Positions 3,913 through 27,412 of a stretch of DNA of 29,502 nt are shown piece after piece. Both the position numbers and the translations under genes were made by a program. Each line of letters starts with the position of its first letter. Within the stretch, counting starts at the first letter, position 1. Under the pieces are notes generated by a model. The model had not been told where the DNA came from and did not search any database. It saw nothing but the letters and a program-made list of their open reading frames with translations. The DNA lies in contig JBFJNB010000001.1 of the NCBI GenBank assembly GCA_041633655.1, forward strand, positions 1-29,502, read 5' to 3'. This DNA comes from Lysobacterales bacterium. GTDB taxonomy: Bacteria > Pseudomonadota > Gammaproteobacteria > Xanthomonadales > SZUA-38.

Positions 3913-3928
3913 TGGCACGGTTGTTGCT
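3913..3928 (+). promoter_or_regulatory. sigma54 -24/-12 promoter 2
   Basis: TGGCACG-GTTG-TTGCT is an exact consensus match, 54 bp before ATG 3983. Confidence 0.85.
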
Positions 3929-3982: not shown

Positions 3983-6175
3983 ATGAACCGTTTTCAGACC
4001 AACGTTGAACCCCCGGCTCGCCGCGCGGCGCGGTGGCTGCTGGTCGTGGCAGCCGCGCTGCTGATAGGCCCGTCGCCCGTGGATCGGGTGAGCGTGCCGG
4101 TCGCGGGCGCAGCGCAGGCCCGCGGCGCGATCCTCCAGGGTGCCGACGTCGAGCGGCTGGTGGCGATTGCGACCGAGCACGGCTGGGAGGTCACCCACCG
4201 CCTCGAGCTGATCGACGCGATTGCGGTTCGCGCCGCGCCGCGGCAGGTGCGCGCGGTCACCGGCGCGCCGGAGGTCATCCGGGTATGGCCCAACCGCACG
4301 CTGCGCGTCGCCGGTGCCGCCGCCAAGACCATGCACGAGTACATGAAGACCGAGCCGTTTCCGACTTTCTTCGGCAACGCGGTCTATCTGGGGTTGCGCA
4401 ATTCGGGTCAGGCCGGAATCGAGATCGATACGATCGAGCTGACCTGGCCGAGCGCGAACGGCGCATTGGTCGCGGTCCTCCGCGACGACCGCGAAGAGGT
4501 AGGCGCGGCCGACCTGGTCGCGACCCTGTCGCCGGACGGTCAGTCCTACGCGCTCGACCTGGCGACCGCGCCGTATCCCCGGTTGCGCCAGAGAATCAAC
4601 GGCGGCGGTGACGCCGTACTGGGATTCCGGTTCGAGCACGAGCCGGTCACCGGGATGGACGCCTACCGTCTCGCGTTCCGATTCGCCGACGGCAGCGCGC
4701 TGACCTTCACCCGCGGCGAGGGCGTGCTGCTGCAAGGGCGCCGCCGGGACACGTTCTTCCCGACCGTGGTGCGCGCCGACCAACTGCATCGCGAGGCCGT
4801 GACCGGCGCCGGCGTGAACATCGCATTCATCGATACCGGCATCTACGAGGTCGACGGCCTGGCCCAGGACACGACCGGGGAGTCGCGCATCCTGGCCGGT
4901 TACAACGCGATCACCGGCACCCTGGTCGAGCTGGACGATTCCGGGACCTACGTTTCCGATCTTCTGTTCGGCACCGGGTTCGAGTCCGACCTGGACGGGC
5001 CGGAAACCGTGTCCGACCTGGATTCGGTCCAGGACGGTTATGGCCACGGCTCCCACGTGACCTCGGCCGCGGTTCTGTCCGAGGCGAGCAAGGACTTCAC
5101 CACCGGTGCGTTCAGCGGCAGCTACAGCGGGATCGCGCCCGACGCCGGGGTCGTCAGCGTCAAGGCGCTCAGCGACAGCGGTCAAGGCAGCTACGCCGAC
5201 GTAATCCGCGGGATCGGCTTCGTCGTGACCAACATGGACCGCTACGCGATTCGCGTGCTGAACCTGTCGATCAGCGCGCCGGTGCACTCGCACTATTGGG
5301 ACGACCCGCTCAATCAGGCGGTGATGCGGGCTTGGGCGGCCGGGATCGTCGTGGTCGCCTCGGCGGGCAACACCGGCCCGGATCCGATGACCATCGGCGT
5401 GCCGGGCAACGTCCCCTACGTGATCACCGTCGGCGCGATGAGCGACAACTTCTCGCCCACCGACGTCAGCGACGATTTCCTGAACGATTTCTCCGCCACC
5501 GGCCCGACCTACGAGGGTTTCGTCAAGCCCGAGGTCACCGCGCCTGGCGGGCATATCCAGGGCCTGATGCCGAAGCGCTCGCACCTGGCCACGACCTACC
5601 CGCAGTTTCACGACGCCAACGTCTGGTTCATGATGTCCGGCACCTCGCAGGCCGCGGCGATCGTCAGCGGCGTCGCGGCGCTGGTGCTGCAGCAGCACCC
5701 CGGCCTCACCCCCGATCAGGTGAAATGCCGGCTGATGAGCAGCGCCCGGCCGGCGGTGGACGGCGACGATGGGCTGGCGCTGAGCATCTTCCAGCAAGGC
5801 GCCGGCCTGGTCGACGCATACGCCGCGGTCAACTCCGATGCCGACGGCTGCGCCAACCAGGGGCTGGACGTGCACGCCGATCTGGCGGGCGCCGCCCATT
5901 ATGGTGGGCGCGCCAACCGGGACGCGGACGGGAACTACTACATCATGGGGCTGGACGGCTACTTGTGGGCCGATGGGTATTTGTGGGCCGACGGGTATCT
6001 GTGGGCCGACGGGTATCTGTGGGCCGACGGGTATCTGTGGGCCGATGGTTATCTGTGGGCCGACGGTTACCTGTGGGCCGACGGCTATGTTTGGAATGAC
6101 GGTGCGGTGCAGCCCGACGGCTACTTGTGGGCCGACGCGGCGATCGGGGTCAACACCTGGGTACCGAACCAATAA
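3983..6175 (+). CDS. Exported S8 subtilisin-like serine protease 1 (signal peptide, I9-like prodomain, inserted domain, catalytic domain, Trp hexapeptide tail)
   Basis: Catalytic motifs IAFIDTG (Asp), GYGHGSHV (His), SAGN (oxyanion Asn), MSGTSQAAAIVSG (Ser). N-terminal hydrophobic stretch WLLVVAAALLIG; prodomain HRLELIDAIAV...VIRVWPNR. ATG 3983 has GAAAGGGG upstream and follows the sigma54 promoter. The ORF-track extension from 3233 overlaps other genes. Confidence 0.92.
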   Translation: MNRFQTNVEPPARRAARWLLVVAAALLIGPSPVDRVSVPVAGAAQARGAILQGADVERLVAIATEHGWEVTHRLELIDAIAVRAAPRQVRAVTGAPEVIRVWPNRTLRVAGAAAKTMHEYMKTEPFPTFFGNAVYLGLRNSGQAGIEIDTIELTWPSANGALVAVLRDDREEVGAADLVATLSPDGQSYALDLATAPYPRLRQRINGGGDAVLGFRFEHEPVTGMDAYRLAFRFADGSALTFTRGEGVLLQGRRRDTFFPTVVRADQLHREAVTGAGVNIAFIDTGIYEVDGLAQDTTGESRILAGYNAITGTLVELDDSGTYVSDLLFGTGFESDLDGPETVSDLDSVQDGYGHGSHVTSAAVLSEASKDFTTGAFSGSYSGIAPDAGVVSVKALSDSGQGSYADVIRGIGFVVTNMDRYAIRVLNLSISAPVHSHYWDDPLNQAVMRAWAAGIVVVASAGNTGPDPMTIGVPGNVPYVITVGAMSDNFSPTDVSDDFLNDFSATGPTYEGFVKPEVTAPGGHIQGLMPKRSHLATTYPQFHDANVWFMMSGTSQAAAIVSGVAALVLQQHPGLTPDQVKCRLMSSARPAVDGDDGLALSIFQQGAGLVDAYAAVNSDADGCANQGLDVHADLAGAAHYGGRANRDADGNYYIMGLDGYLWADGYLWADGYLWADGYLWADGYLWADGYLWADGYLWADGYVWNDGAVQPDGYLWADAAIGVNTWVPNQ
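5954..6133 (+). repeat. 18-bp coding tandem repeat: (DGYLWA)x7, DGYVWN, DGAVQP, DGYLWA
   Basis: Read directly from the DNA. Units vary at synonymous positions (gac/gat, ggc/ggg/ggt, tac/tat, ttg/ctg); units 3-5 are identical. Confidence 0.95.
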
Positions 6176-6186
6176 ACGAGTGGGCA

Positions 6187-8361
6187 ATGAGAACGCGAAC
6201 TGAAACCAGCACACTCTCCCTTTTTGCTGCGGCGCTCGGGGTCCTGATCGCGGCCGGGGTTACCCGGACCGTGCCCGCGCCGTCGGTCGATGTCGGACCG
6301 GCGGAGCGCTACATCGTGCGCGGCGCAGACCTGGAGCAGGCGCGCGCCGCGGTGCGGGGGGTCCAGGGCGAGATCATTCGAGAGCTCGGGATCATCGACG
6401 CGGTCGGCGCGCGGCTGACCCCGCGCCAGAAATCGGCGCTCGAGGCGCTGGATTCGGTGCGCGGCGTCTACCCCGACCGCGCGGTCGAGCTCAACGCCAA
6501 ACCGGGCGGCGGCAACGGTAATTCCTGCGACGAGCAGGTCATGCTCGATCGGTTCGAGTCCGACGCCTACAACAACAACGATGGCACCGCCTCCTTCCAG
6601 GGGAACTGGTACGAATGGATCGGCGACGGCGGGGCGCGCAATGGCGCGATCCACGTCAACGGCGGCATGCTGCACTTCGCCGGCCCGGCCCCGGACGGCC
6701 GGTTCGCGCTGGAGCGCTATTTTCGGATCGATTCTCTGGCCTATGTGAACCTGACCTTCGATGTTGAGGCCAGCGCCGCCACCGGGGCCGACGACGTGCT
6801 GATGCTGTACTCGGTCGACGAGATGGGGGGCGCCGACGAACTGCTGAGCATTCGCGCCGACGAGGTCAAGAACCTGACGCATCTGTCGGTGGACCTGACG
6901 ATCGAGTACTGGAACATCTGGGCGGTCGGATTCGAGGTCGTGTCCGGGCTGCAGACGAGCGACCAGCGGTTTTCGATCGACAATTTCAAGATGGCCATCA
7001 GCATCGAGCATCCCGGTGACCAGGACAACGAGCTGATCGGCGCCGAACGCGTCCGCGAGCAGCTCGGGCTGGACGGGCGCCAAATCGGAATCGCCTTCGT
7101 CGACACCGGCTACACCCATTTCATGGGGGACAACGACGAGGTCGGCGGCAACGGCGGCGTCACGACTTATTCGGTCCTCGCCGGCTCACCCGCCGACGCC
7201 CACGGCCACGGCACCCACGTGATCAGCGCCGCGACCCATAACATGAGAGGCCCGAGCCTGTGTTCGAAGGCGCCGAAGCTCGGCGTGGCACCCGCCGCCG
7301 ACGTCGTCTCGGTGCGCGCGTTCGATGCCCAGGGGCAGGGCACCTATCTGGACGTGATCGCGGCGATCGACTGGGTGGTCCAGATCAAGGACCTGCACAA
7401 CATTCGGGTCCTCAATCTCTCGTTCGGCGCCACCCCTCAATCCAACTACTGGAACGATCCGGTCAACCTGGCGGCGATGGCCGCGTGGCAGGCCGGCATC
7501 GTGGTCGTGACCTCGGCCGGCAACTCCGGTCCCGATCCGATGAGCATCACGGTACCCGGCAACGTGCCCTATCTGATCACCGTGGGCGCACTGACCGACG
7601 ATTACACCGGCTCGATCGCCGGCGACGACCGGGTCGCGAGCTTCTCCGCCGCCGGCCCGACCCATGAGGCATTCGTCAAGCCCGACCTGATCGCCCCCGG
7701 CGGCCACATCCTGGGGACGATGCCCTACGGCAGCACGCTGCGGATGCTGTATCCGGAATACGTCGATCCCGACGACGACCACTACTTCACGATGTCCGGC
7801 ACCTCCCAGGCCGCGGCCGTGGTCAGCGGTGCGATTGCGCTGATGCTGGATGACGATCCCGGCCTGAGCCCGGACGACGTCAAGTGCCGGCTGCTGAGCA
7901 GCGCGATGCAGGCCACGCTCGGCGACGGCACGCCGGCCTACAGCCCGTTCCGTCAGGGCGCCGGCCTGATCAACGTGGACCGAGCGATTGCGAGCACCGA
8001 GACCGGCTGCGCCAATCAGGGGCTCAATATCGCGCTCGACCTCGCCGGACTGGAGCACTACGTGGGTCCGGTCCGGGCCGACGCTCAGGATCAGTTCTAC
8101 CTGGTCCGGGCCGACGGCACCATCCTGAGCGATGATTCATTCTGGAACGAAACCTCGGTCTGGAACGAAACCTCGGTCTGGAACGAAACCTCGGTCTGGA
8201 ACGAGACCTCGGTGTGGAACGAGACTTCGGTCTGGAACGAGACCTCGGTCTGGAACGAGACCTCGATTTGGAACGAAACCTCGATTTGGAACGAGAGCAA
8301 CTTCCTGAACAACGGATTGACCGCGTCGATGTCCGTTTCGGTCTGGATCGAACCGGAATAA
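6187..8361 (+). CDS. Exported S8 subtilisin-like serine protease 2 with inserted domain and Trp hexapeptide tail
   Basis: IAFVDTG, AHGHGTHV, TSAGN and MSGTSQAAAVVSG motifs; hydrophobic N-terminus LSLFAAALGVLIAAG; I9-like YIVRG...ELGIIDAVGARL. Starts 11 bp after the protease 1 stop, so probably co-transcribed. Confidence 0.92.
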   Translation: MRTRTETSTLSLFAAALGVLIAAGVTRTVPAPSVDVGPAERYIVRGADLEQARAAVRGVQGEIIRELGIIDAVGARLTPRQKSALEALDSVRGVYPDRAVELNAKPGGGNGNSCDEQVMLDRFESDAYNNNDGTASFQGNWYEWIGDGGARNGAIHVNGGMLHFAGPAPDGRFALERYFRIDSLAYVNLTFDVEASAATGADDVLMLYSVDEMGGADELLSIRADEVKNLTHLSVDLTIEYWNIWAVGFEVVSGLQTSDQRFSIDNFKMAISIEHPGDQDNELIGAERVREQLGLDGRQIGIAFVDTGYTHFMGDNDEVGGNGGVTTYSVLAGSPADAHGHGTHVISAATHNMRGPSLCSKAPKLGVAPAADVVSVRAFDAQGQGTYLDVIAAIDWVVQIKDLHNIRVLNLSFGATPQSNYWNDPVNLAAMAAWQAGIVVVTSAGNSGPDPMSITVPGNVPYLITVGALTDDYTGSIAGDDRVASFSAAGPTHEAFVKPDLIAPGGHILGTMPYGSTLRMLYPEYVDPDDDHYFTMSGTSQAAAVVSGAIALMLDDDPGLSPDDVKCRLLSSAMQATLGDGTPAYSPFRQGAGLINVDRAIASTETGCANQGLNIALDLAGLEHYVGPVRADAQDQFYLVRADGTILSDDSFWNETSVWNETSVWNETSVWNETSVWNETSVWNETSVWNETSIWNETSIWNESNFLNNGLTASMSVSVWIEPE
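8143..8304 (+). repeat. 18-bp coding tandem repeat: (WNETSV)x6, (WNETSI)x2, WNESNF
   Basis: Counted from the DNA: tggaacga(a/g)ac(c/t)tcg(gtc/gtg/att); the first three units are identical. Confidence 0.95.
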
Positions 8362-8382
8362 GCCCGGTGCCGACGCCCTGAC

Positions 8383-8441
8383 CCGAAAAATCTGGCGCCG
8401 GAGCCGGCGCCAGATTTTCCTATCCGCGCCGTTTTTTTCGG
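8383..8441. promoter_or_regulatory. Putative UAS (three 15-bp motif copies) for sigma54 promoter 3; the first two form a perfect 14-bp inverted repeat that may also terminate the upstream operon
   Basis: CCGAAAAATCTGGCG (8383-8397, +), TAGGAAAATCTGGCG (8408-8422, -), CCGAAAAAAACGGCG (8427-8441, -). Inverted repeat AAAATCTGGCGCCG-gagc-CGGCGCCAGATTTT at 8387-8418. Confidence 0.7.
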
Positions 8442-8495
8442 CCGTCTCGCGGCCGTAAGTTCTTTTCTGCGCAGAAACAAAGAGATACCAAAAGT

Positions 8496-8511
8496 TGGCA
8501 TAGGGCTTGCT
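8496..8511 (+). promoter_or_regulatory. sigma54 -24/-12 promoter 3
   Basis: TGGCATA-GGGC-TTGCT with correct GG-N10-GC spacing, 39 bp before ATG 8551. Confidence 0.8.
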
Positions 8512-8550
8512 GCAATCTGACTGCAAAGCAAGGTGTTTTGGGGCGCGTCA

Positions 8551-10770
8551 ATGTCATCGATAAAAAGAACCCACCAGCGAGTTCTCGCCGCCGCGGCCGC
8601 GGTTGCGGCGGTCGGCCTCGTCGTGTTGGGTTCGGCGGTGATGCCGGTGGCGCACGAAGCCGGTGACCGCTCGTCGACCGCTCGCTACATCGTCGCCGGC
8701 GCCTCGAGCACCGCGGTGAGCGACATTCTCACCGCCCGCGGGGTAGAGATTCTGGCCAGGCTCGAAATCATCGACGCCGTCGGCGCCGAGTTGACCGCGA
8801 CCCAGGTCGAAGCGCTGACCCGGGTCCCGGGCCTGCGGCTGCACCGAGATCGTGCGCTCAAGGTCCAGTCCGCGGGTGGTACGTCCTGCGGCGAGACCGT
8901 GATGCTCGATCGCTTCGAGAGCGACCGGTTCGACAACAACGATGGCAACGTGCCCTGGGACGGGCCGTGGAAGGACACCGACGAGACAGACGGTGCCAAC
9001 CACGGCTTCTCGCGGGTCGAGGGCGGCAAGGTCCGGCTGTGGGGCAGCAACGAGGACGACGAGGACACCGGCGTGATTCGCAAGGCGGTGCTGCAGGCCG
9101 GACAGTACGCCTACCTGTCGTTGGATCTGGAGACCAACGGCGTGATGCCGAGGCGCGCCGAATTCGAGCTGGAGATCATCGTCGACGGGATCGATTACAA
9201 GCTCGAATTGATGGACCTCGAACCCGACATGAAATTCACGCGCAGCTACAACCTGGCCGCCTTTGCCGGCAAGAAGATCCGGGTCGAGCTCGAGCTGGAA
9301 GACGCCGGCGACGAGGTCAGGAATGGTCAGCGGCCGCTGCTCAGCATCGACAACGTCAAGATCGTCCAGTCGCCGGACAATCCGGGAGCCTACGCGGCCG
9401 ACCTGGTCGAGGCCACGGTGCTGCACGATGCTGGAATCGACGGCTCCGGCGTGACCATCGCCTTCGTCGACTCCGGCGTCGACCCCAACAGCGAATCGAT
9501 GTTCAAAGGCAACGGCCAGTCTCGTCTTAAGGGCCACTACTCGGTCAACGGCAGCGGCTCGAACGACGGCCACGGCCACGGTTCGCACCTGGTCAGCGTG
9601 GCCACCCAGGCGTCGGCCGCTCCCAGCTCCTGCGTCACAGACGGTGGGAGAAAGCTGGGTATCGCCCCGGGCGCGGATGTGGTCGCGGTGCGAGCGTTCG
9701 ACAACCACGGCCACGGAACCTATCTCGGCGTGATCCAGGCGCTCGACCTGGTGCTGTCGATGAAAGACCTCCACGACATCCGCATCGTCAATCTGTCCTT
9801 CGGCGCGACCCCGGAGTCCACTTACTGGGACGACCCGGTCAACCAGGCGGTGATGAAACTGTGGGCCGAAGGCCTGGTGGTCGTGACCTCGGCTGGCAAC
9901 GAGGGGCCGGACCCGATGTCCATTACCGTGCCCGGCAACGTGCCCTACGTGATCACCGTCGGCGCGATGACCAACAACTACACCACCAGCGACTCCAGCG
10001 ATGACCGGGTCGCCACATTCTCCGGCGCCGGCCCGACCGCGGAGGGCTTCGTCAAGCCGGATCTGGTCGCTCCCGGCGGCCACCTGGCCGGCATCATCGG
10101 CGCCGGCAACACGCTGGCCTATGACCTTGCCGCTTACGCGGACCAGAACGACGGTGACTATTTCCTTGCCTCCGGCACCTCGCAGGCCGCGGCCGTGGTC
10201 AGCGCGGCGGCTGCCTTGCTGCTGCAGTACGACCCGAGCCTGACCAACGATGAGGTCAAGTGTCGCCTGATGGAGGGCGGCAAGCTGGCCACGCTGGCGA
10301 ACGGCGATCTGGCCTACAGCCCGTTTCGTCAGGGCGCCGGCCTGCTGAACCTGTACGCGGCCGTCAACGCGCAGCCCAATGGCTGTCCAAACGACGGGTT
10401 GGACGTTCACGCCGATCTGTATCAGGGGATTCATTTCACCGGACCGGTCCGGGCGGACGCCCAGGGCCACTTCGAGATCGTTCAGGCCGACGGCAGCCTC
10501 TGGAGCCAGGGCTCGTTCTGGAACGAGGGTTCATTCTGGAACGAGAACACGGTTTGGAACCAGGGTTCGCTCTGGAGCGAAACGTCGTTTTGGAACGAGA
10601 CCTCGATCTGGAACGAAACCTCGATCTGGAACGAGACCTCGATCTGGAACGAAACGTCAATCTGGAACGAGACCTCGATCTGGAACGAGACCTCGATCTG
10701 GAACGAGGGGGGGCTGGGGAACACGGCTTTGGTGCCGATGGTGCTGGCCGTGGCCAGGGATCAGCAGTAG
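8551..10770 (+). CDS. Exported S8 subtilisin-like serine protease 3 with inserted domain and Trp hexapeptide tail
   Basis: IAFVDSG, GHGHGSHL, TSAGN and ASGTSQAAAVVS motifs; long hydrophobic N-terminus VLAAAAAVAAVGLVVLGSAV; I9-like YIVAG...RLEIIDAVGAEL. ATG 8551 is preceded by GGGGCG. Confidence 0.92.
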   Translation: MSSIKRTHQRVLAAAAAVAAVGLVVLGSAVMPVAHEAGDRSSTARYIVAGASSTAVSDILTARGVEILARLEIIDAVGAELTATQVEALTRVPGLRLHRDRALKVQSAGGTSCGETVMLDRFESDRFDNNDGNVPWDGPWKDTDETDGANHGFSRVEGGKVRLWGSNEDDEDTGVIRKAVLQAGQYAYLSLDLETNGVMPRRAEFELEIIVDGIDYKLELMDLEPDMKFTRSYNLAAFAGKKIRVELELEDAGDEVRNGQRPLLSIDNVKIVQSPDNPGAYAADLVEATVLHDAGIDGSGVTIAFVDSGVDPNSESMFKGNGQSRLKGHYSVNGSGSNDGHGHGSHLVSVATQASAAPSSCVTDGGRKLGIAPGADVVAVRAFDNHGHGTYLGVIQALDLVLSMKDLHDIRIVNLSFGATPESTYWDDPVNQAVMKLWAEGLVVVTSAGNEGPDPMSITVPGNVPYVITVGAMTNNYTTSDSSDDRVATFSGAGPTAEGFVKPDLVAPGGHLAGIIGAGNTLAYDLAAYADQNDGDYFLASGTSQAAAVVSAAAALLLQYDPSLTNDEVKCRLMEGGKLATLANGDLAYSPFRQGAGLLNLYAAVNAQPNGCPNDGLDVHADLYQGIHFTGPVRADAQGHFEIVQADGSLWSQGSFWNEGSFWNENTVWNQGSLWSETSFWNETSIWNETSIWNETSIWNETSIWNETSIWNETSIWNEGGLGNTALVPMVLAVARDQQ
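10501..10716 (+). repeat. 18-bp coding tandem repeat, 12 Trp units: WSQGSF WNEGSF WNENTV WNQGSL WSETSF (WNETSI)x6 WNEGGL
   Basis: Counted from the DNA; units degenerate towards the 5' end and are homogeneous in the 3' half. Confidence 0.95.
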
Positions 10771-10787
10771 CACTGCGGCCGCGCGGC

Positions 10788-13910
<3,123 letters not shown>

Positions 13911-13947
13911 CGACCGTGCACTCATTCGGCCGCGCGCCTGCCGGATT

Positions 13948-13976
13948 TTGCCGGTGCTTGGACAACGGCATAAAAT
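13948..13976 (+). promoter_or_regulatory. Putative sigma70-type promoter for the sensor gene pair
   Basis: TTGCCG-N17-TAAAAT in the short divergent intergenic region; no sigma54 consensus was found here. Confidence 0.45.
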
Positions 13977-13994
13977 GGTACGCCTTCCACGGGC

Positions 13995-16900
13995 ATGAAA
14001 CGCGGCAAGCCAATGATCGACCGAATCCGGATTCTATCCTTTTCCGGCCCGCTCGTGCTCCTTTGGTGGATCGGGTCGGCGGTCGCACTGGAGCAGCGTC
14101 ACAACATTCGCTTCGACCGCCTCGGTCTGGAGGAGGGCCTGTCGCAGGAGACCGTCTACGACATCCTGCAGGATCGCGACGGGATCCTCTGGCTGGCGAC
14201 CCAGGAGGGACTGAACCGGTACGACGGTTATACGATCCGAACCTATCTCCACGAGCCCGATGAGCCCGGCACGCTGTCGCACGACTGGGTCTGGACCGTG
14301 CTCGAGGATCGCTCCGGGACCTTGTGGGTCGGCACCGACGGGGGCGGACTGAACCGGTTCGACCGGCGCACCGGTTCCTTCATCCACTATCGGCACGCGG
14401 AGCACGATCGGGCGACGCTTTCCAACGACGTGGTTCGGGTGGTGTTCGAAGACCGCGACGACGGCCTTTGGGTGGGCACCGACGGTGGCCTCAATCGGTT
14501 CGATCCCGAAACCGGCACGTTTCGCCGCTTCCGCCACGACCCGGCGGACCCGTTCAGCATCTCGGACGACCGCGTGCGCGCGGTGGTCCAGGACCGGCGC
14601 GGACTGCTGTGGGTTGCCACCGACGGTGGCGGTTTGAACCAGATGGATCTGGCTCGCGACAACTTCCATCAGTTTCGCCACGACCCGAACAACCCCGGCT
14701 CGCTGAGCAGCGATCGGGTGCGCAGCCTGTACGAAGCGCGCGACGGGATGTTGTGGATCGGCACCTACGACGGCGGCCTGAACCGCTACAACCCGCGCAC
14801 CGGCACGTTCAAGCACTATCAGGGACAGGGAACCGGCCTGGAGAGCGACTTCGTGCGCGAGATGCTCCAGGATCACCGCGGGGTGCTGTGGGTCGCCACC
14901 GACAACGGGCTGCACGAGTACCGACCCGAGAGCGACACCTTCGTGCGTTATGGCAGCGACGTGGCCAATCCCAAGAGCCTGGCCGACAACCGCACCATTT
15001 CGCTGTTTCAGGATGCCGGCGAGGTGCTTTGGGTCGGCACCTACGCCGGACTCAACAAGTGGAACTATCAGACCATCGCGTTCCGCCTGTACCGGGGGGC
15101 TCAGGCGAACGGCCTGCGCAGCGACGCCATTCTGGCCTTTGCCGAGACCAACGGCGGCGACTGGTGGATCGGCACCTACGAGGGGCTGTACCGCTACCGC
15201 AGCGAGTCCGGGATGTTCGAGCTGCAACCGCTGGAGATCGCGCCCGGCCAGCCCGGCGACGAGCGCATCACGGCGCTGGCGACCGACCCCGGCGGTGAGC
15301 TTTGGATCGGAACCCGTGCCGGCGGCTTGTTTCGGTTGGACCCGCGGACCGGGCAAACCACTCATTATCCGGCGACCAGCGCCCCGGGCGGGCTCTCCGT
15401 GGGCGGCGTCACCGCGCTCAGCGTCGATCAGGAAGAGTCCCTGTGGGTGGCGACGTTCGGGGGCGGGCTGTACCGTCACGACCGCGCGCTGGATCGGTTC
15501 GAGGCCTACCGGCACGATCCCGAAGATCCCGCCTCGCTCCCGAGCAATCGGGTGGTCTCGATCCTGATCACCGACAACGGCGAGATCTGGGTGGGCACCT
15601 TCGGCGCCGGCGCCGCGCGCCGGTCGGCCGAGGCCGGCGGATTCCTGACCTTCACCAACGAGCCCGGCGACAAGACCAGTCTCTCCAACAATACCGTGTG
15701 GGCGATCCACGAGGACCTGCGCGGAAACCTGTGGTTCGGCACCCAGGGCGGTGGCCTCAACCTGCTGCCGGCGGATCAGCGCACCCTGGTCGATCCGGCT
15801 TTCCAGCGCTTTGGCCGCCGCCAGGGCCTGCGCAGCCAGGTCGTGTACGGCGTGTTGTCCGACGACCAGGGCAACATCTGGGCCAGCTCCAATCGTGGGC
15901 TCGTGCGCCTGGTGCCCTCGAGTGGGCGGGTCACCCACTACGATACGCATCACGGACTGCAGGCCTACGAATTCAATTCGGGGGCCTACCTGCGTACCCG
16001 CCGCGGGGAGATGCTGTTCGGCGGCTCCAAGGGCTTCAACGCCTTCTTTCCGTCCGAGGTGCGACTGCGCGAATACAAACCGCCGGTGGTCCTGACCAAC
16101 GTGTTCAAGGTCAACGAACCACTGGTGCGTCCCGGCGGCTTGCAGCGGCTCGAGCACCTGGATCTGGCGGCCGAAGATTATCTGGTGACGTTCGAATTCT
16201 CGGGGCTGGATTACAGCTCTCCCGGCGACAACGCATACCGTTACAAGCTCGAGGGCTACGACACCGACTGGATCGAATCGGGATCGGTGCGACGCGCCTC
16301 GTACACCAACCTGCCCAGCGGCCAATACCGCTTCATGGTGCTCGCGGCCGGACCCGGGGGGGTGTGGAGCGATCCCAGCATCAACCTGGACGTCATCGTG
16401 CACCCGCCCTGGTACTTGAGTCCGGTCGCCTATCTCGCCTACGCCCTCGGGTTGATCGCGGCGCTGCTGGCCGGGTATGCGCTGCACCGCCGACGCCTCG
16501 CGCGCGAGGCCAGTTTGAGGGTCGAGCTCGAGCGCGAGATCTCCGATCGCACCCAGGAGCTGGTCGAGCGCGGGCTGGAACTCGAGGAGCGCAACCGCGA
16601 ACTGCGCGCGCTGAACACGCGCCTGGAAGAGACTTCGATCACGGATCCGCTGACCGGGCTGAACAATCGACGCTTCGTTCGGGAGTTCATGCAGAAAACC
16701 GCCGGCTCACTGGATCGGCGACTGGAGAAACTGCCGCTGGCCACGGTTCAGAAGCATGGCCCGAGGCTGTTCTGCATCGTGCTGGACGTCGACGGGTTCA
16801 AGCCCCAGATCGAGCGCTTCGGTCCGGCCTTCGGGGATCGGGTGCTGGAGCGGATCGGGCGTGATCTGCGCGGCTTGTGTCGCGAGGCGGACCTGGTGGC

Positions 16901-17342
16901 CCGGTGGGGCGAGGACCAGTTCCTGCTGGTTGGCGAGACCGCCGACGTCGAGATCGTAATGGCCATCGCCGAGCGCCTGGTCAGCGTGATCTCCGAGATC
17001 GACCACCGCACCGCCGACAACGAGCTGGTGCGGATCACGATCACCGCGGGACTGACCCTTTATCCGTTTTCGATCGTGCAGCCGCACCTGTTCACCTGGG
17101 AGCAGGTGACCGCGATCTCCCAACAGGCGACCGTGCTGGGCAAGCAGAAGGGCGGGAATCGCTGCGTCGGGATCGGGGTCGGTTCACTGGGCCTGTCGCG
17201 CGGCGATTTCAAGAAAATCCTCAGCGACCCCGACGGGATGGAGCGGCGCGGCGCGATCAAGATTCATTTCATCGGTCCGGGCGCCAGGGCAACGGCGGTA
17301 GAGGACCCGGACGAAACCGAGGGTGGGCCGCATGCCGCGTAG
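13995..17342 (+). CDS. Membrane sensor: periplasmic beta-propeller (Reg_prop) repeats + Y_Y_Y + TM + degenerate GGDEF (alternative start 14013)
   Basis: GLSQETVYDILQDRDGILWLATQEGLNRYDG and many LWVGTxGGGL repeats; Y_Y_Y (YRYKLEGYDTDW...ASYTNLPSGQYRFMV); PPW followed by a TM helix; coiled coil; TDPLTGLNNRR, VLDVDGFK and RWGEDQF. Confidence 0.9.
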   Translation: MKRGKPMIDRIRILSFSGPLVLLWWIGSAVALEQRHNIRFDRLGLEEGLSQETVYDILQDRDGILWLATQEGLNRYDGYTIRTYLHEPDEPGTLSHDWVWTVLEDRSGTLWVGTDGGGLNRFDRRTGSFIHYRHAEHDRATLSNDVVRVVFEDRDDGLWVGTDGGLNRFDPETGTFRRFRHDPADPFSISDDRVRAVVQDRRGLLWVATDGGGLNQMDLARDNFHQFRHDPNNPGSLSSDRVRSLYEARDGMLWIGTYDGGLNRYNPRTGTFKHYQGQGTGLESDFVREMLQDHRGVLWVATDNGLHEYRPESDTFVRYGSDVANPKSLADNRTISLFQDAGEVLWVGTYAGLNKWNYQTIAFRLYRGAQANGLRSDAILAFAETNGGDWWIGTYEGLYRYRSESGMFELQPLEIAPGQPGDERITALATDPGGELWIGTRAGGLFRLDPRTGQTTHYPATSAPGGLSVGGVTALSVDQEESLWVATFGGGLYRHDRALDRFEAYRHDPEDPASLPSNRVVSILITDNGEIWVGTFGAGAARRSAEAGGFLTFTNEPGDKTSLSNNTVWAIHEDLRGNLWFGTQGGGLNLLPADQRTLVDPAFQRFGRRQGLRSQVVYGVLSDDQGNIWASSNRGLVRLVPSSGRVTHYDTHHGLQAYEFNSGAYLRTRRGEMLFGGSKGFNAFFPSEVRLREYKPPVVLTNVFKVNEPLVRPGGLQRLEHLDLAAEDYLVTFEFSGLDYSSPGDNAYRYKLEGYDTDWIESGSVRRASYTNLPSGQYRFMVLAAGPGGVWSDPSINLDVIVHPPWYLSPVAYLAYALGLIAALLAGYALHRRRLAREASLRVELEREISDRTQELVERGLELEERNRELRALNTRLEETSITDPLTGLNNRRFVREFMQKTAGSLDRRLEKLPLATVQKHGPRLFCIVLDVDGFKPQIERFGPAFGDRVLERIGRDLRGLCREADLVARWGEDQFLLVGETADVEIVMAIAERLVSVISEIDHRTADNELVRITITAGLTLYPFSIVQPHLFTWEQVTAISQQATVLGKQKGGNRCVGIGVGSLGLSRGDFKKILSDPDGMERRGAIKIHFIGPGARATAVEDPDETEGGPHAA

Positions 17343-20300
17343 CCTCGCGGCCTGGGCCCTCGCGGCACTGCTCGCGGCAGGCGCCGCGCCGGCCAAGGAC
17401 AACCTGGTCTTTTCCCACCTGACGGTCGACCAGGGATTGTCGCAGGAGTTCATCACCGCGGTGGTCCAGGACCCTTACGGCTTCATCTGGGTCGGCACAC
17501 AGGAGGGACTGAATCGCTTTGACGGCCGCCGGTTCGAGGTGTTCCTGAATGAACCCGGCAACCCCCAGTCGCTGCCCCATGACTGGGTGACCGATCTGCT
17601 GGTTGCCGCCGACGGACGGCTGTGGGTCGGGACCCGTGGCGGTGGCCTGAGCGTGTTCGATTACTCCCGTTCGAGGTTCGAGCCGTTCGGGGGGCTCGAG
17701 CAAGGCTTCGGCCAGCTCGCGATCCGCTGCCTGCACCAGGACCAGAACCGGATCATCTGGGCCGGCACCGACAACGACGGGATCGTGCAGATCGACCGGG
17801 ACGGCACGGTAGCGCGGCTGCGGCACGACCCGCTGGATGCGACCAGCCTGTCGGACGATCGCGTGCGCGACGTCGTCAGCGACCCCCAGGGCCGGGTGTG
17901 GGTCGCGACCGAGGGGGGCGGCCTGAACCTGTGGGACGATCAGACCGGGAAGTTCGAGGCTTTTCGGCACTCGCCGCAGGTGGCCGATACGCTCAGTTCC
18001 GACCGCCTGCTGAGCCTGTTTGCCGCGCCCGACGGAACGATCTGGGTCGGCACCTACGACGCCGGGCTGTCGGTCGTCAATCCGTTTCGCCGGTCGGTGG
18101 TGCGCCTGGGTCACTCGCCGGAAGATTTCTTCAGCCTGTCGTCGAATCGGGTGCGGGTCGTCTATCAGGACGTCGACGGGCGGATCTGGGTTGGTACCGA
18201 CAACGGCCTGGATCTGTGGGATCCGGACCGGCGCGGGTTCCACCGGTATCGATCCGAAAGTGGGGCACGCGGTTCGCTCTCGGACAACCGGATCACGACC
18301 CTGATGCAGGACCGGGGCGGGGTGCTCTGGGTGGGCACCTATGCCGGACTGAACAACTGGAACGCCCGGGTCGGATCGATTCAGCACTACCGGCGGGAAG
18401 CCGAGGCACCCAGCTCCCTGAGCAGCGACGTGATTACCTCGTTCGCCGAGGATCGCAACGGCCGGCTGTGGGTCGGCACCTGGGGCGGCGGTCTGAACCG
18501 GATCGATCTCGCGAGCGGGCAGATCGTTCATTACCGCGCGGGCGAGGGATCGCTGGCCGACGACCGGGTCATGTCCCTGCTGGCGGATCGCGGCGGCCGC
18601 TTGTGGGTGGGCACGCTGAGCAGCGGCCTGCATCGGTTCGATGCCGATCGGGAGGCTTTCACGCGCTATCGCCATGACCCCGAGGATCCGGCCAGCATCA
18701 GCGCCAACGCGATCACCAACATCTTCGAGGACAGCCGCGGCTGGATCTGGGTGGCCACCTTCGGCGGCGGCCTGAATCGGCTCCAACCGGACGGTGTCTT
18801 CACCCGCTACATGGCCGGGCCCGCCGACGAGGGCCGCCTCAGCAGCAACCGCGTGATCGATATCGCGGAGAACGACGACGGCAAATTGTGGCTCGCCACC
18901 GACGGTGGCGGGATCAACATCTTCGACCCGATTCAGGAGCGCTTCGAGCGGGTACTGCCCGACCCGGAACGCCCCGATTCGCTGGCCAGCGCCGCGGTGG
19001 TCTCGGTGCTGATCACCAAAACCGACATCTGGCTCGGCACCCGGGATTCCGGTCTCGATCGACTGGCGCAGGCCGACTATCGGGCCGGGCGCCTCAAGTT
19101 TCGGCACTACACCCGGCAGACCGGGCTGCCGAGCAATGCGATCCAGGGCGTCCTCGAGGACGACACCGGGATGATCTGGTTGTCCAGCAATAAAGGGATC
19201 ACCGCGATCGCGCCCGAAAACGACCGAATTCGTAACTTTCGCGAGCCCCACGGTCTGCAGGGTGCCGAATTCAATAGCGGGGCCCATTACAAGGCCCAGG
19301 ACGGGACGCTCTACTTCGGCGGCAACAACGGTTTCAACCGCTTCAATCCGCGCAACCTGTTCTGGTCCAGCAACGCCTACAAGCCGCCGGTGGTGTTGAC
19401 CGGTTTGACGATTTTCGGCGAGGCAGTGACGTTCGACCGGCCGCTGGCGGAGGTCCGATCGATCGCGCTGAACTACTCCGACTACGTGGTCGGTTTCGAG
19501 TTCGCGGCGCTGGATTACACCAACCCCGAGGCCAACCGCTACCGCTACCGGCTGGAGGGTCTGGAGGACAACTGGAACGATTCCGGAAATATTTCTCGCG
19601 CCACCTACACCAACCTGGCACCCGGCAGGAACTACATGTTCCGGGTGCAGGCGGCCAACAGCGACGGGGTCTGGAGCGATCAGGAGCTCGCCATCGCAAT
19701 CACCGTGCGTCCGCCGCCGTGGATGACCTGGTGGGCTTACCTGGTGTACGCGCTGTTGGCCCTGGGTGTCGCGCTGGTGGTGAGCGGCCTGCTCATCCGC
19801 CGCACCCGGGCACAGACCGAAAAGCGGGCCAACGAGCGCCTCCGCATGTACCTGCACTGTCTCGACGAGGCGGCCGACGCGGTCGCCATCCTGGAGCCCG
19901 ACGGCGAGATTGCCTACCACAACCGCGCGCTGGCCGAGATGCTCGAGCACCAGGCCGGCGGCGCGCTGCGGCCGTCCCAGCTGTTCGCTTCGGAGGACTC
20001 CGCCCGCCAGGCGCTGGCCGAGGTGGCCGAGCACGGTCGCTGGCAGAAAACGATGCCGCGGCCCGGTGATCGCGTCGACGCCTATCTCGATTTGACCTTG
20101 ACCCAGGTCGGGATGGATGGCGCGGGCAGCGCGATCATTGCGATCGCCCGCGACGCGACCGAGCGGAAACAGACCGAGGACGAGCTGAAGCGCTACCGCG
20201 ACCGGCTGGAAATGCTGGTGCACAAGCGAACCCAGGAACTGGAGCAGGAGATCGGCGAGCACAAGCGCACCGAGAACCAGTTACGGATCTCATTGGACGA

Positions 20301-20928
20301 AAAGGAACTGCTGCTCAAGGAGGTGCACCACCGGGTCAAGAACAACATGCAGGTGGTGTCCAGCCTGCTTCACATCCAGACCGAGACCATCGAGGATCCG
20401 GCCGTCATCGCGATGCTCAACGAGAGCCAGAACCGGATCCGCTCGATGGCGCTGATCCACGAGAGCCTGTATCAGTCCGACAACCTGCTGCAGATCGACT
20501 TCGACGATTACCTGAGGCTTCTGACCGGCAAGCTCAACCGGATTTACGAAACCCCGGGCGTGAGCGTGGCGATCGAAATCGAGTCGCGAGACGTTCAGCT
20601 CGACATCGAGCGCGCGGTGCCGTGCGGGCTGATCGTCAACGAGCTGGTTTCCAACTCGCTCAAACACGCGTTCAAGGGGCGCGACGGCAGCGGTCGGATC
20701 GCGGTTCGGGCGGGGCGCCAGGAATCCCATTTCGTGCTCGAGGTCTGCGATGACGGGGTCGGGTTCCCGGAGGGCGTGGATTTCCGGGAGATGGCCTCGA
20801 TGGGGATGGAGATCGTCTGCATCCTGGCCGGCCAGCTCAAGGGCACGATCGAACTGGAGCGCCAGCATGGCACCTGCTTCGTGATTCGCTTTCCGGTCGG
20901 CGACGAGGATCACTCCGAGGCCGCCTGA
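17332..20928 (+). CDS. Sensor histidine kinase: Reg_prop propellers + Y_Y_Y + TM + PAS + coiled coil + HisKA_2 + HATPase_c
   Basis: Same propeller/Y_Y_Y architecture (YRYRLEGLEDNW...ATYTNLAPG); PAS ending ARDATERK; H-box LLKEVHHRVKNNMQ, N-box ELVSNSLKHAF, G1 VCDDGVGFP. Start overlaps the upstream stop by 11 bp. Confidence 0.92.
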   Translation: MPRSLAAWALAALLAAGAAPAKDNLVFSHLTVDQGLSQEFITAVVQDPYGFIWVGTQEGLNRFDGRRFEVFLNEPGNPQSLPHDWVTDLLVAADGRLWVGTRGGGLSVFDYSRSRFEPFGGLEQGFGQLAIRCLHQDQNRIIWAGTDNDGIVQIDRDGTVARLRHDPLDATSLSDDRVRDVVSDPQGRVWVATEGGGLNLWDDQTGKFEAFRHSPQVADTLSSDRLLSLFAAPDGTIWVGTYDAGLSVVNPFRRSVVRLGHSPEDFFSLSSNRVRVVYQDVDGRIWVGTDNGLDLWDPDRRGFHRYRSESGARGSLSDNRITTLMQDRGGVLWVGTYAGLNNWNARVGSIQHYRREAEAPSSLSSDVITSFAEDRNGRLWVGTWGGGLNRIDLASGQIVHYRAGEGSLADDRVMSLLADRGGRLWVGTLSSGLHRFDADREAFTRYRHDPEDPASISANAITNIFEDSRGWIWVATFGGGLNRLQPDGVFTRYMAGPADEGRLSSNRVIDIAENDDGKLWLATDGGGINIFDPIQERFERVLPDPERPDSLASAAVVSVLITKTDIWLGTRDSGLDRLAQADYRAGRLKFRHYTRQTGLPSNAIQGVLEDDTGMIWLSSNKGITAIAPENDRIRNFREPHGLQGAEFNSGAHYKAQDGTLYFGGNNGFNRFNPRNLFWSSNAYKPPVVLTGLTIFGEAVTFDRPLAEVRSIALNYSDYVVGFEFAALDYTNPEANRYRYRLEGLEDNWNDSGNISRATYTNLAPGRNYMFRVQAANSDGVWSDQELAIAITVRPPPWMTWWAYLVYALLALGVALVVSGLLIRRTRAQTEKRANERLRMYLHCLDEAADAVAILEPDGEIAYHNRALAEMLEHQAGGALRPSQLFASEDSARQALAEVAEHGRWQKTMPRPGDRVDAYLDLTLTQVGMDGAGSAIIAIARDATERKQTEDELKRYRDRLEMLVHKRTQELEQEIGEHKRTENQLRISLDEKELLLKEVHHRVKNNMQVVSSLLHIQTETIEDPAVIAMLNESQNRIRSMALIHESLYQSDNLLQIDFDDYLRLLTGKLNRIYETPGVSVAIEIESRDVQLDIERAVPCGLIVNELVSNSLKHAFKGRDGSGRIAVRAGRQESHFVLEVCDDGVGFPEGVDFREMASMGMEIVCILAGQLKGTIELERQHGTCFVIRFPVGDEDHSEAA

Positions 20929-23414: not shown

Positions 23415-23513
23415 AATCCCCAAGGGGTGGCCGTGAACGCGGCCTGAGACGCCTTCTCAACGGGAGGCGAACCCTTCGAACCTGATCCGGTTAATGCCGG
23501 CGTAGGAATGGGC
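23415..23513 (+). ncRNA. TPP (thi-box) riboswitch aptamer
   Basis: GGGGTG...CTGAGA...ACCCTTCGAACCTGATCCGGTTAATGCCGGCGTAGGAA contains all conserved TPP segments, upstream of thiamine uptake genes. Confidence 0.95.
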
Positions 23514-23535
23514 ACCCTCCGAGGCCGCCGTTACC

Positions 23536-23561
23536 GGATCTCCGAAAAGCCTGGGAGATCC
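23536..23561 (+). promoter_or_regulatory. RBS-sequestering hairpin (riboswitch expression platform)
   Basis: GGATCTCC (23536-23543) pairs with GGAGATCC (23554-23561), which covers the GGAG SD directly before ATG 23562. Confidence 0.8.
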
Positions 23562-27271: not shown

Positions 27272-27412
27272 ATCCGATGAAGGCGATGGAGAATCGGGCA
27301 CATCCGTGTGCCCTGTCAGCACGGGAGGACGAAATCGGAGGGAGGGGGGAGATCTCCGATTTCTACGAAAAGTATAATACGTTATGCTTCGTATAACAAT
27401 GGACCAAAAGTC

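Follow-up and report, generated by a model that had tools for sequence, protein, structure and literature searches.

Three family S8 subtilases encoded in tandem by a Lysobacterales bacterium (p1, p2, and p3) each end in a tail of hexapeptides in which tryptophan recurs every sixth residue. Their genes are arranged head to tail, all on the + strand, in a 29,502-nucleotide stretch of DNA (JBFJNB010000001.1, hereafter the window), which is one entire contig of a 2.9-Mb, 69%-complete metagenome-assembled genome (MAG) and has a G+C content of ~66%. The tail is an uncatalogued kind of subtilase C-terminal extension, new to Pfam, NCBIfam, and the Protein Data Bank (PDB). It is not an oddity of the window; it is a widespread family feature restricted to one S8 clade. 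As to its role, we tentatively propose that the tail works as a multivalent, non-catalytic display of exposed tryptophans by which the exported protease would be tethered to a partner or a polymer.

The tail in the window and across homologues

All three tails lie in frame where an initial annotation of the sequence had located them, and Tandem Repeats Finder (TRF) reports an 18-bp array in each: at 5964-6088 in p1 (6.9 copies, 92% matches), at 8141-8294 in p2 (8.6 copies, 94% matches), and at 10499-10709 in p3 (11.7 copies, with extra TRF periods of 36 and 54). Read by codon, and with copy numbers taken from the MAG assembly, the tails hold 8+1 (p1), 9 (p2), and 12 (p3) Trp units at a spacing of exactly six residues. 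The DNA pattern TGG-N15 repeated seven times has 11 matches in the window and 0 in 100 shuffles, and within the MAG it is confined to p1, p2, and p3.

The p1 tail begins with an N-terminal cap (HYGGRANRDADGNYYIMGLD, 5897-5956, + strand), a conserved hairpin ahead of the repeats. AlphaFold2 (AF2), run on the tail alone, models this cap with strands at residues 6-8 and 14-16 and a predicted local distance difference test score (pLDDT) of ~80. The hexad array follows on the same strand at 5957-6136. In a register that places Gly first it comprises seven GYLWAD units, GYVWND, the Trp-less GAVQPD, and a further GYLWAD; read by codon from the Trp, the same units are seven WADGYL, WNDGAV, the Trp-less QPDGYL, and WADAAI. 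A C-terminal cap (AAIGVNTWVPNQ, 6137-6172, +) closes the tail. Its sequence is one version of the end motif of the family, [ST][IV]NxWVxQE, and its WVPNQ ending is also present in the homologues P0092, P0108, and P0077.

The other two tails, also on the + strand, follow the same plan. In p2, an N-cap delimited by alignment (HYVGPVRADAQDQFYLVRADGTILSD, 8056-8133), for which AF2 gives strands at residues 629-631 and 637-640 (pLDDT 82-88), precedes Trp hexads at 8143-8304 (six WNETSV, two WNETSI, and WNESNF). Degenerate units continue in phase up to 8349, and the C-terminal cap SMSVSVWIEPE (8326-8358) aligns to the family end motif. In p3, the N-cap (HFTGPVRADAQGHFEIVQADGS, 10432-10497) is likewise placed by alignments, and the 12 Trp hexads at 10501-10716 consist of five diverged units (WSQGSF, WNEGSF, WNENTV, WNQGSL, and WSETSF), six WNETSI, and WNEGGL. 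The p3 protein then runs into a degenerate end (GNTALVPMVLAVARDQQ, 10717-10767) in which the Trp-Val of the cap is lost and only the final DQQ is motif-like; the other two frames contain no end motif there. GVNTWVPNQ of p1 and SVSVWIEPE of p2 fit the end motif in the form [ST][IV]NxWVx[QPN][EQ], whereas the ARDQQ end of p3 does not.

The consensus that the initial annotation proposed for the three tails holds, and they represent one homologous repeat type. Identical units vary only synonymously, in p1 by GAT/GAC, GGG/GGT/GGC, TAT/TAC, and TTG/CTG, and in p2 by GAA/GAG, ACC/ACT, and GTC/GTG. Many of these differences probably spread as passengers of duplicated 36- or 54-bp blocks, and because of such block duplications, seen in the TRF periods of 36 and 54, the number of independent synonymous events is small. 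Selection on the peptide, which had been deduced from this variation, is supported, mainly by conservation among homologues; synonymous variation alone is modest evidence for it.

The p2 (8143-8304) and p3 (10591-10698) consensus units are identical at 17 of 18 DNA positions, compared with ~74% identity between the catalytic regions, a likeness that fits either constraint combined with codon bias or gene conversion between tandem paralogues. The WNETS units (8143-8304, 10573-10698) all hold an N-x-T sequon, and relatives carry WNVS, WNLS, WNAS, or WNGS (P0006, P0148, P0172, and L130). The acidic -2 residue needed by PglB-type N-glycosylation is absent at the WNETS sequons, and most of the family has N-Q-G. 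Open reading frames that cross the repeats at 8097-8531 and 8137-8526 on the - strand, and at 5838-6203 and 10379-10912 on the + strand, are by-products of the periodicity and not genes.

Homologues show that the tail is a frequent companion of these proteases. Among the 120 best homologues found with p3 as query (35-55% identity), 111 have at least three in-phase C-terminal Trp hexads. Tails were cut for comparison at a nearly invariant His after the catalytic domain, present in 120 of 123 sequences, and they share a single anatomy of N-cap, hexads, a short Ser/Thr/Ala-rich linker, and an end motif at the extreme C-terminus. The N-cap, H[YF]xGPAxxDxxGxYY[LV]xD, stands right after the catalytic domain and is found in p1, p2, and p3. 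In the alignments its H, G, and G..YY columns hardly vary, and it folds as a hairpin in AF2 even in isolation (pLDDT ~80). In the last 12 positions of 119 tails, the Trp of the end motif is present in 107, the Val in 103, and the final Glu in 99.

Between these caps, neighbouring tryptophans of the 119 tails are exactly six residues apart in 582 of 864 cases. The unit consensus, with frequencies in per cent, is W-[N32 S29 D10]-[Q32 E20 N12 D11]-[G75 S10 A7 T4]-[Y49 S15 F8]-[L45 A11 V9 I9 T9], or in short W-[NS]-[QE]-G-[YS]-L, with Trp as the invariant residue. The GYLWAD unit of p1 is near this consensus, while the TS[VI]WNE units of p2 and p3 belong to a WNE subtype common to their nearest relatives P0001, P0003, and P0004. 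Tails contain from 2 to more than 25 units, which are either homogenised, as here, or diverged, and some relatives have periods of 8, 11, or 12 residues (8 and 11 in P0081, P0111, and P0069). One clade of 14 tails, at 46-95% identity (median 57%), contains no indel over 102 residues, which suggests a constraint on length.

A profile built from 68 tails and searched against 1.84 billion cluster representatives finds 244 (E<=1e-3), almost all of which are S8 proteins or pieces of such proteins; 74 pass E<=1e-10. Of the 144 new representatives listed, 90 have an S8 domain and 42 are short, mostly gene-call fragments. The remaining 12 are unrelated long proteins that match via G-x-L-x-N-x hexads; they include autotransporter, PEP-CTERM, and type IX secretion system (T9SS) proteins, a trypsin-like protease, and a tail-fibre-like protein containing a left-handed beta-helix (LbH). 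The pattern TGG-N15 x7 was also scanned over the genomes of 185,579 species, a sample and not a census. It occurs at 120 loci or more, most matches being out-of-frame repeats, and the only credible in-frame Trp runs among the matches listed are S8 C-termini from Acidobacteriota, Gammaproteobacteria, and Chloroflexota. Named tail carriers belong to Pseudomonadota, Acidobacteriota, and Chloroflexota, to which tail-like clusters of the ESM Atlas add Actinomycetota.

Two groups of proteins in these searches depart from the usual form. In P0153, P0188, P0212, P0247, P0249, and P0264, a set of large proteins of autotransporter, PEP-CTERM, and T9SS types that also includes a trypsin-like protease, G-x-[LIV]-x-N-x hexads match the tail profile at E values of 1e-6 to 1e-15, with a variable residue filling the position of the tails' Trp. 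P0191 and P0210 are short proteins made up of a signal peptide, N-cap, and Trp tail without a protease domain, and P0238 and P0245 have a signal, propeptide, and tail without a catalytic domain. These four could be stand-alone secreted tails, or artefacts of assembly or gene calling.

Comparison with catalogued domains and characterised subtilases

Pfam and NCBIfam, searched with full-length p1, p2, and p3, recognise the S8 domain only and leave the tails uncovered; Pfam finds no PPC, P_proprotein, or other accessory domain on any of the three. When 68 tails are searched against Pfam at E<=10, there is no match to Hexapep, W_rich_C (PF07483), CW_binding, ChW, WG_beta_rep, or RTX. Neither the p3 tail nor the tail profile retrieves anything relevant from PDB sequences, even at E<=10, and the tail is not described in the open-access full-text literature searched.

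PF12779 (WXXGXW) gives a borderline match to the p1 tail, at 18.1 bits for a cut-off of 18 (E=0.003). Neither the p2 nor the p3 tail matches it, and it is found in five of the 68 family tails at E<=10, with a best value of 0.003. WXXGXW is listed among repeat families without a solved structure (PMC8078820). With its two copies, it resembles the tails in being a short bacterial repeat centred on Trp and Gly, but its tryptophans are spaced W-x-x-G-x-W where those of the tails are spaced W-x-x-G-x-x-W, and it models neither the caps nor the link to S8.

Two further candidates were rejected. An RTX beta-roll with a type I secretion signal does not suit a tail of period six that has no GGxGxDxUx nonapeptide and no RTX hit in Pfam, on proteins that carry N-terminal signal-like segments. 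By inspection, the end motif has no transmembrane segment, basic cluster, or terminal aromatic residue, which sets it apart from the sorting signals PEP-CTERM, GlyGly-CTERM, LPXTG, and T9SS and from the outer-membrane-protein beta-signal.

The proteases themselves are ordinary family S8 members. On the + strand, p1 (3983-6175) encodes an exported subtilase of 730 aa, p2 (6187-8361) one of 724 aa, and p3 (8551-10770) one of 739 aa that is 50% identical to p2. Each has an N-terminal signal-like hydrophobic segment. The Peptidase_S8 domain (PF00082) is detected at E values of ~1e-42 to 1e-45 (2.4e-42 for p1), with scores of 145.6 (p1), 153.3 (p2), and 145.3 bits (p3) against a gathering cut-off of 21.8. 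The Asp/His/Ser triad and the oxyanion Asn are intact in all three (D[TS]G, HG[TS]H, NLS, and SGTSQA). The triad motifs, all on the + strand, lie at 4826-4840 (FIDTG), 5045-5056 (HGSH), and 5636-5653 (SGTSQA) in p1; at 7096-7110 (FVDTG), 7207-7218 (HGTH), and 7795-7812 (SGTSQA) in p2; and at 9463-9477 (FVDSG), 9577-9588 (HGSH), and 10171-10188 (SGTSQA) in p3.

An AF2 model of full-length p2, made with 123 sequences, has a mean pLDDT of 79, with values of 90+ in the catalytic domain and ~97 in a propeptide-like beta-alpha-beta-beta-alpha-beta unit at residues 40-101. Residues 117-272 (window ~6535-7002) form a beta-sandwich insert between propeptide and catalytic domain (AF2 pLDDT 55-85). This insert has counterparts in p1 and p3 and no Pfam hit, and it is seemingly missing from many of the ~560-600 aa homologues.

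Tk-SP of Thermococcus kodakarensis (3afg, ProN-Tk-SP; 9ues) is the closest solved sequence (E=1.5e-39), and 3afg is also the top Foldseek match of the p2 model (E=1e-24), a search in which the full-length model recovers subtilases only. Like p1, p2, and p3, it is built as a pre-pro protein with an N-propeptide and carries an accessory part at its C-terminus, which in Tk-SP is a beta-jelly-roll domain. The sequence match spans p2 residues 255-574 and never the tail, however, and Tk-SP has no Trp hexads. The label 'serine protease AprX' is attached by JGI to many homologues of the tail-bearing S8 proteins.

Other known C-terminal parts of subtilases resemble the tail in position. The aqualysin I pro-sequence, PPC, and P-domains follow the catalytic domain of exported S8 proteases and are plausibly non-catalytic and possibly processed, as the tail may be, but they are unrelated to it in sequence and are globular or non-repetitive, where the tail is Trp-periodic and ends in a motif. 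The S8 peptidase Vpr of Bacillus forms fibrils that are extracellular and active (PMC10657474; PDB 8jmw). As an S8 protease that self-assembles outside the cell, and so may concentrate activity near it, Vpr offers a precedent for assembly or tethering, although its similarity to p1, p2, and p3 is confined to the catalytic domain and it has no Trp-hexad tail.

Genes and promoters around the proteases

In the window, the proteases are flanked by an upstream REC-PAS-GGDEF-EAL gene and by a REC-PAS-GGDEF-GAF sigma54 activator (10788-13925). Two Reg_prop/Y_Y_Y sensors (13995-17342 and 17323-20928), one ending in GGDEF and the other in a HisKA_2 kinase, are encoded in the same region (10788-20928). 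Homologues on long contigs provided seven related loci (L131-L137). A Reg_prop/Y_Y_Y sensor adjoins the tail-bearing protease gene in six of them (L132-L137), as it does in the window. The sensors of these six loci are membrane proteins with outputs of the GGDEF type, which act on cyclic di-GMP (c-di-GMP), or of the hybrid-kinase type. At L133 and L134 the sensor gene and the end of the protease gene share 4 nt, the protease stop codon included, and L135 also encodes the GGDEF-GAF-sigma54 activator known from the window (10788-13925). This conserved pairing of protease and sensor is the best available functional clue.

Three perfect matches to the sigma54-type -24/-12 pattern TGGCAY-N5-TTGCW, all on the + strand, lie in the window, each 40-55 nt upstream of a start codon. 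One precedes p1 by 55 nt (TGGCAC-N5-TTGCT, 3913-3928), one precedes p3 by 40 nt (TGGCAT-N5-TTGCT, 8496-8511), and one is upstream of the REC-PAS-GGDEF-EAL gene (1119-1134). No -24/-12 match precedes p2, whose start codon lies 11 nt past the p1 stop, and p1 and p2 therefore look like one operon. A GC-rich perfect hairpin followed by a T run (TTTT) at 8386-8420 (+), 3' of p2 and read from the sequence, is likely the terminator of this operon; a simple terminator scan passed over it, since the rule of that scan demands a longer loop. Downstream of the sensor block lie two TonB-dependent receptor genes and an APH/choline-kinase-like gene (23508-25610 and 27308-29464, +).

Candidate folds and roles of the tail

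Tethering by a Trp array is the reading we favour, at something short of even confidence. The tails of the window are local versions of a C-terminal module that is conserved in one large 'AprX'-labelled clade of exported subtilases and is composed of a folded hairpin cap, hexads of the form small-[Y/S]-hydrophobic-W-[N/S]-[E/Q/D], and a short acidic end motif. We infer that the Trp array is solvent-exposed, joined by tyrosine in many relatives, and that it serves in binding; candidate targets are a glycan-rich substrate or matrix, the cell surface, and the periplasmic beta-propeller of the Reg_prop/Y_Y_Y sensor. As a monomer the tail would not be an autonomous globular domain, and it would become ordered, if at all, on binding or self-association. 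In support of this, the unit composition of W, Y, N, Q/E/D, and G is that of residues that contact carbohydrates and other ligands. The conservation of the module, its confinement to this protease clade, the lack of any confidently predicted fold, the gene pairing with the sensor, and the precedent of Vpr also count in its favour. A multivalent array also suits the range of 2 to more than 25 units, homogenised or diverged, and the rare candidate stand-alone secreted tails (P0191 and P0210) suit an independent binding or ligand unit.

Several observations weigh against such an array. The charge at W+2 varies between lineages (E/D, Q/N, or K/R), so that no single electrostatic target is indicated. 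The strict skeleton of the Trp-less hexads and the absence of indels from the 102-residue clade resemble an ordered repeat fold more closely than a loose sticker array, and caps at both ends are typical of solenoids. The synteny argues for a link between protease and sensor and not specifically for one between tail and sensor, and at the Thalassomonas locus (L131) a tail-bearing homologue has no adjacent sensor.

The initial annotation had read the units as hexapeptides of a left-handed beta-helix, and the in/out pattern of residues does fit such a fold. The putative inward set consists of the hydrophobic residue before Trp, the N/S/A after it, and the small residue at W+3 (G/S/A/T in 96%), and the putative outward set of W, E/D/Q, and Y/S. 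Trp-less hexads, recognised where tryptophans are 12 residues apart, keep the hydrophobic position and, more weakly, the small W+3 residue (G/S/A/T in 69%), with E/G/S in place of Trp. Because this skeleton is kept, the hexads seem to be a scaffold to which an exposed Trp has been added. The tails resemble LpxA-type LbH proteins (PF00132, Hexapep) in their period of six and, when read as L-W-N-Q-G-Y, in having position 1 aliphatic and position 5 small. They differ at position 2 of the LbH consensus [LIV]-[GAED]-X2-[STAV]-X, where they have an invariant Trp instead of G/A/E/D.

Structure predictions and profile comparisons do not follow the pattern. None of the 68 tails has a Hexapep match at E<=10, full-length p1, p2, and p3 show none either, and hhalign of the tail profile against residues 400-900 of P0227, a region with Pfam Hexapep/LbH matches, returns a probability of 1.3%. 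In the AF2 model of full-length p2, the repeats have a pLDDT of 42-62 and no regular secondary structure; in the run on the p1 tail alone (107 aligned tails) they have a pLDDT of 30-42 and no strands. Both runs (pLDDT 30-62) hence predict the repeats as disordered, which is the predicted half of the outcome, disorder in prediction and in measurement, that the initial annotation had named as contrary to its proposal. The ESM Atlas offers no confident model of the tail-like clusters, nor of a G-x-L-x-N-x hexad protein. The beta-helix proposal therefore fits the residue pattern and not the predictions, and is unproven. A 1:1:1 hetero-trimer of the three paralogues, suggested along with it, is not a general role, since only one S8 gene is present at each of the seven related loci.

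A broader version of the idea, an ordered beta-solenoid, is possible though doubtful. It would be either a single-chain LbH with 18 residues per coil or a multi-chain helix or cross-beta assembly, with outer Trp/Tyr ladders and sealing caps. The alternating inward and outward residue sets, the survival of the skeleton on loss of Trp, the conserved caps at both ends, and the lack of indels in the 102-residue clade are all consistent with it, as are the 12 hexads in unbroken phase in p1, in p2, and in the 102-residue class. Weak similarity also connects the tail profile to the G-x-L-x-N-x hexads found in autotransporter, PEP-CTERM, and LbH-containing proteins; Atlas neighbours of the PEP-CTERM protein P0249 include the PATR, pentapeptide, and Pmp families, and in some Atlas clusters of tail-like S8 C-termini 16-23% of members have Hexapep hits. 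A multi-chain fold would, moreover, escape monomer prediction. Against a solenoid stand the AF2, Hexapep, and hhalign results and the Trp in the consensus G/A/E/D position. Periods of 8 and 11 residues (P0081, P0111, and P0069) misfit an 18-residue coil, and unit numbers, which span 2 to more than 25, are in many cases not divisible by three.

A Trp-zipper-like meander of beta-hairpins with Gly in the turn was considered and rejected. The W+3 position is small (G/S/A/T, with Thr in p2 and p3) and not of the positive-phi type (G/N/D), and AF2 predicts no hairpins in the repeats.

The arrangement of the loci brings in two readings in which the tail is a signal. In the first, which we consider unlikely, the tail is a tethered peptide string that is cut into Trp hexapeptides by the protease or a paralogue, or is shown uncut, and that signals to the co-encoded Reg_prop/Y_Y_Y sensors, which would in turn act through c-di-GMP and sigma54 on the same genes. 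Units identical as peptides with only synonymous DNA differences would suit such a string, as would the paralogue-specific units (GYLWAD, TSVWNE, and TSIWNE), the accessibility of a region predicted to be unstructured, and the candidate stand-alone secreted tails. Subtilisins prefer large hydrophobic P1 residues, in keeping with cleavage of this kind. The protease-sensor pair of the window and six of seven loci also counts in its favour, together with the two sensors, the sigma54 activator, and the sigma54 promoters before p1 and p3 in the window. Many clades have units that all differ at a fixed tail length, however, unlike a multi-copy precursor, and a flanking processing motif is absent. 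The identity of units can be explained by recent duplications of 18, 36, or 54 bp, and nothing ties the tail, rather than the products of the protease, to the sensor.

In the second and likewise unlikely reading, the double-propeller Reg_prop/Y_Y_Y sensors encoded alongside have the tail as their cognate ligand, either intact, so that the protease docks onto the sensor, or as self-processed Trp hexapeptides. If this is true, c-di-GMP levels would be set by each protease-sensor pair acting as a peptide-signal circuit complete in itself. In the window there would be feedback on the sigma54 promoters of the proteases, and GYLWAD, TSVWNE, and TSIWNE would be specificity codes.

It is improbable that the tail is a C-terminal pro-sequence which, as in aqualysin I, serves in folding, export, or latency and is then cut off to give the mature protease. 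Processing of the C-terminal extension is common among secreted subtilases, and Tk-SP, the nearest solved relative, has both N- and C-terminal accessory parts. The conserved Q-E C-terminus could be a recognition element on a tail that is flexible in the models. A pro-sequence leaves unexplained the invariant Trp per six residues, the range of 2 to more than 25 units, and the candidate stand-alone tails, and the AF2 model of p2 shows no docking of the tail on the catalytic domain or in the active site. Finally, functionless low-complexity expansion by replication slippage, as the 92-94% identity within the 18-bp arrays and the likeness of the p2 and p3 units relative to their catalytic regions might suggest, is effectively excluded by conservation across phyla, since Trp, the skeleton, and both caps are kept in fully diverged DNA and lengths are fixed within clades.

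Whichever of these roles applies, the tail occurs on hundreds of secreted subtilases, in soil and water bacteria that span several phyla, although the enzyme class is among the best studied. Naming and solving the tail would add a new repeat family to domain catalogues and would bear on how these proteases are localised or controlled. The window is a convenient natural comparison set for this purpose, with three differently tuned copies under sigma54 promoters. The sensor pairing could, in addition, open a testable route to what c-di-GMP-linked Reg_prop/Y_Y_Y sensors read outside Bacteroidota.

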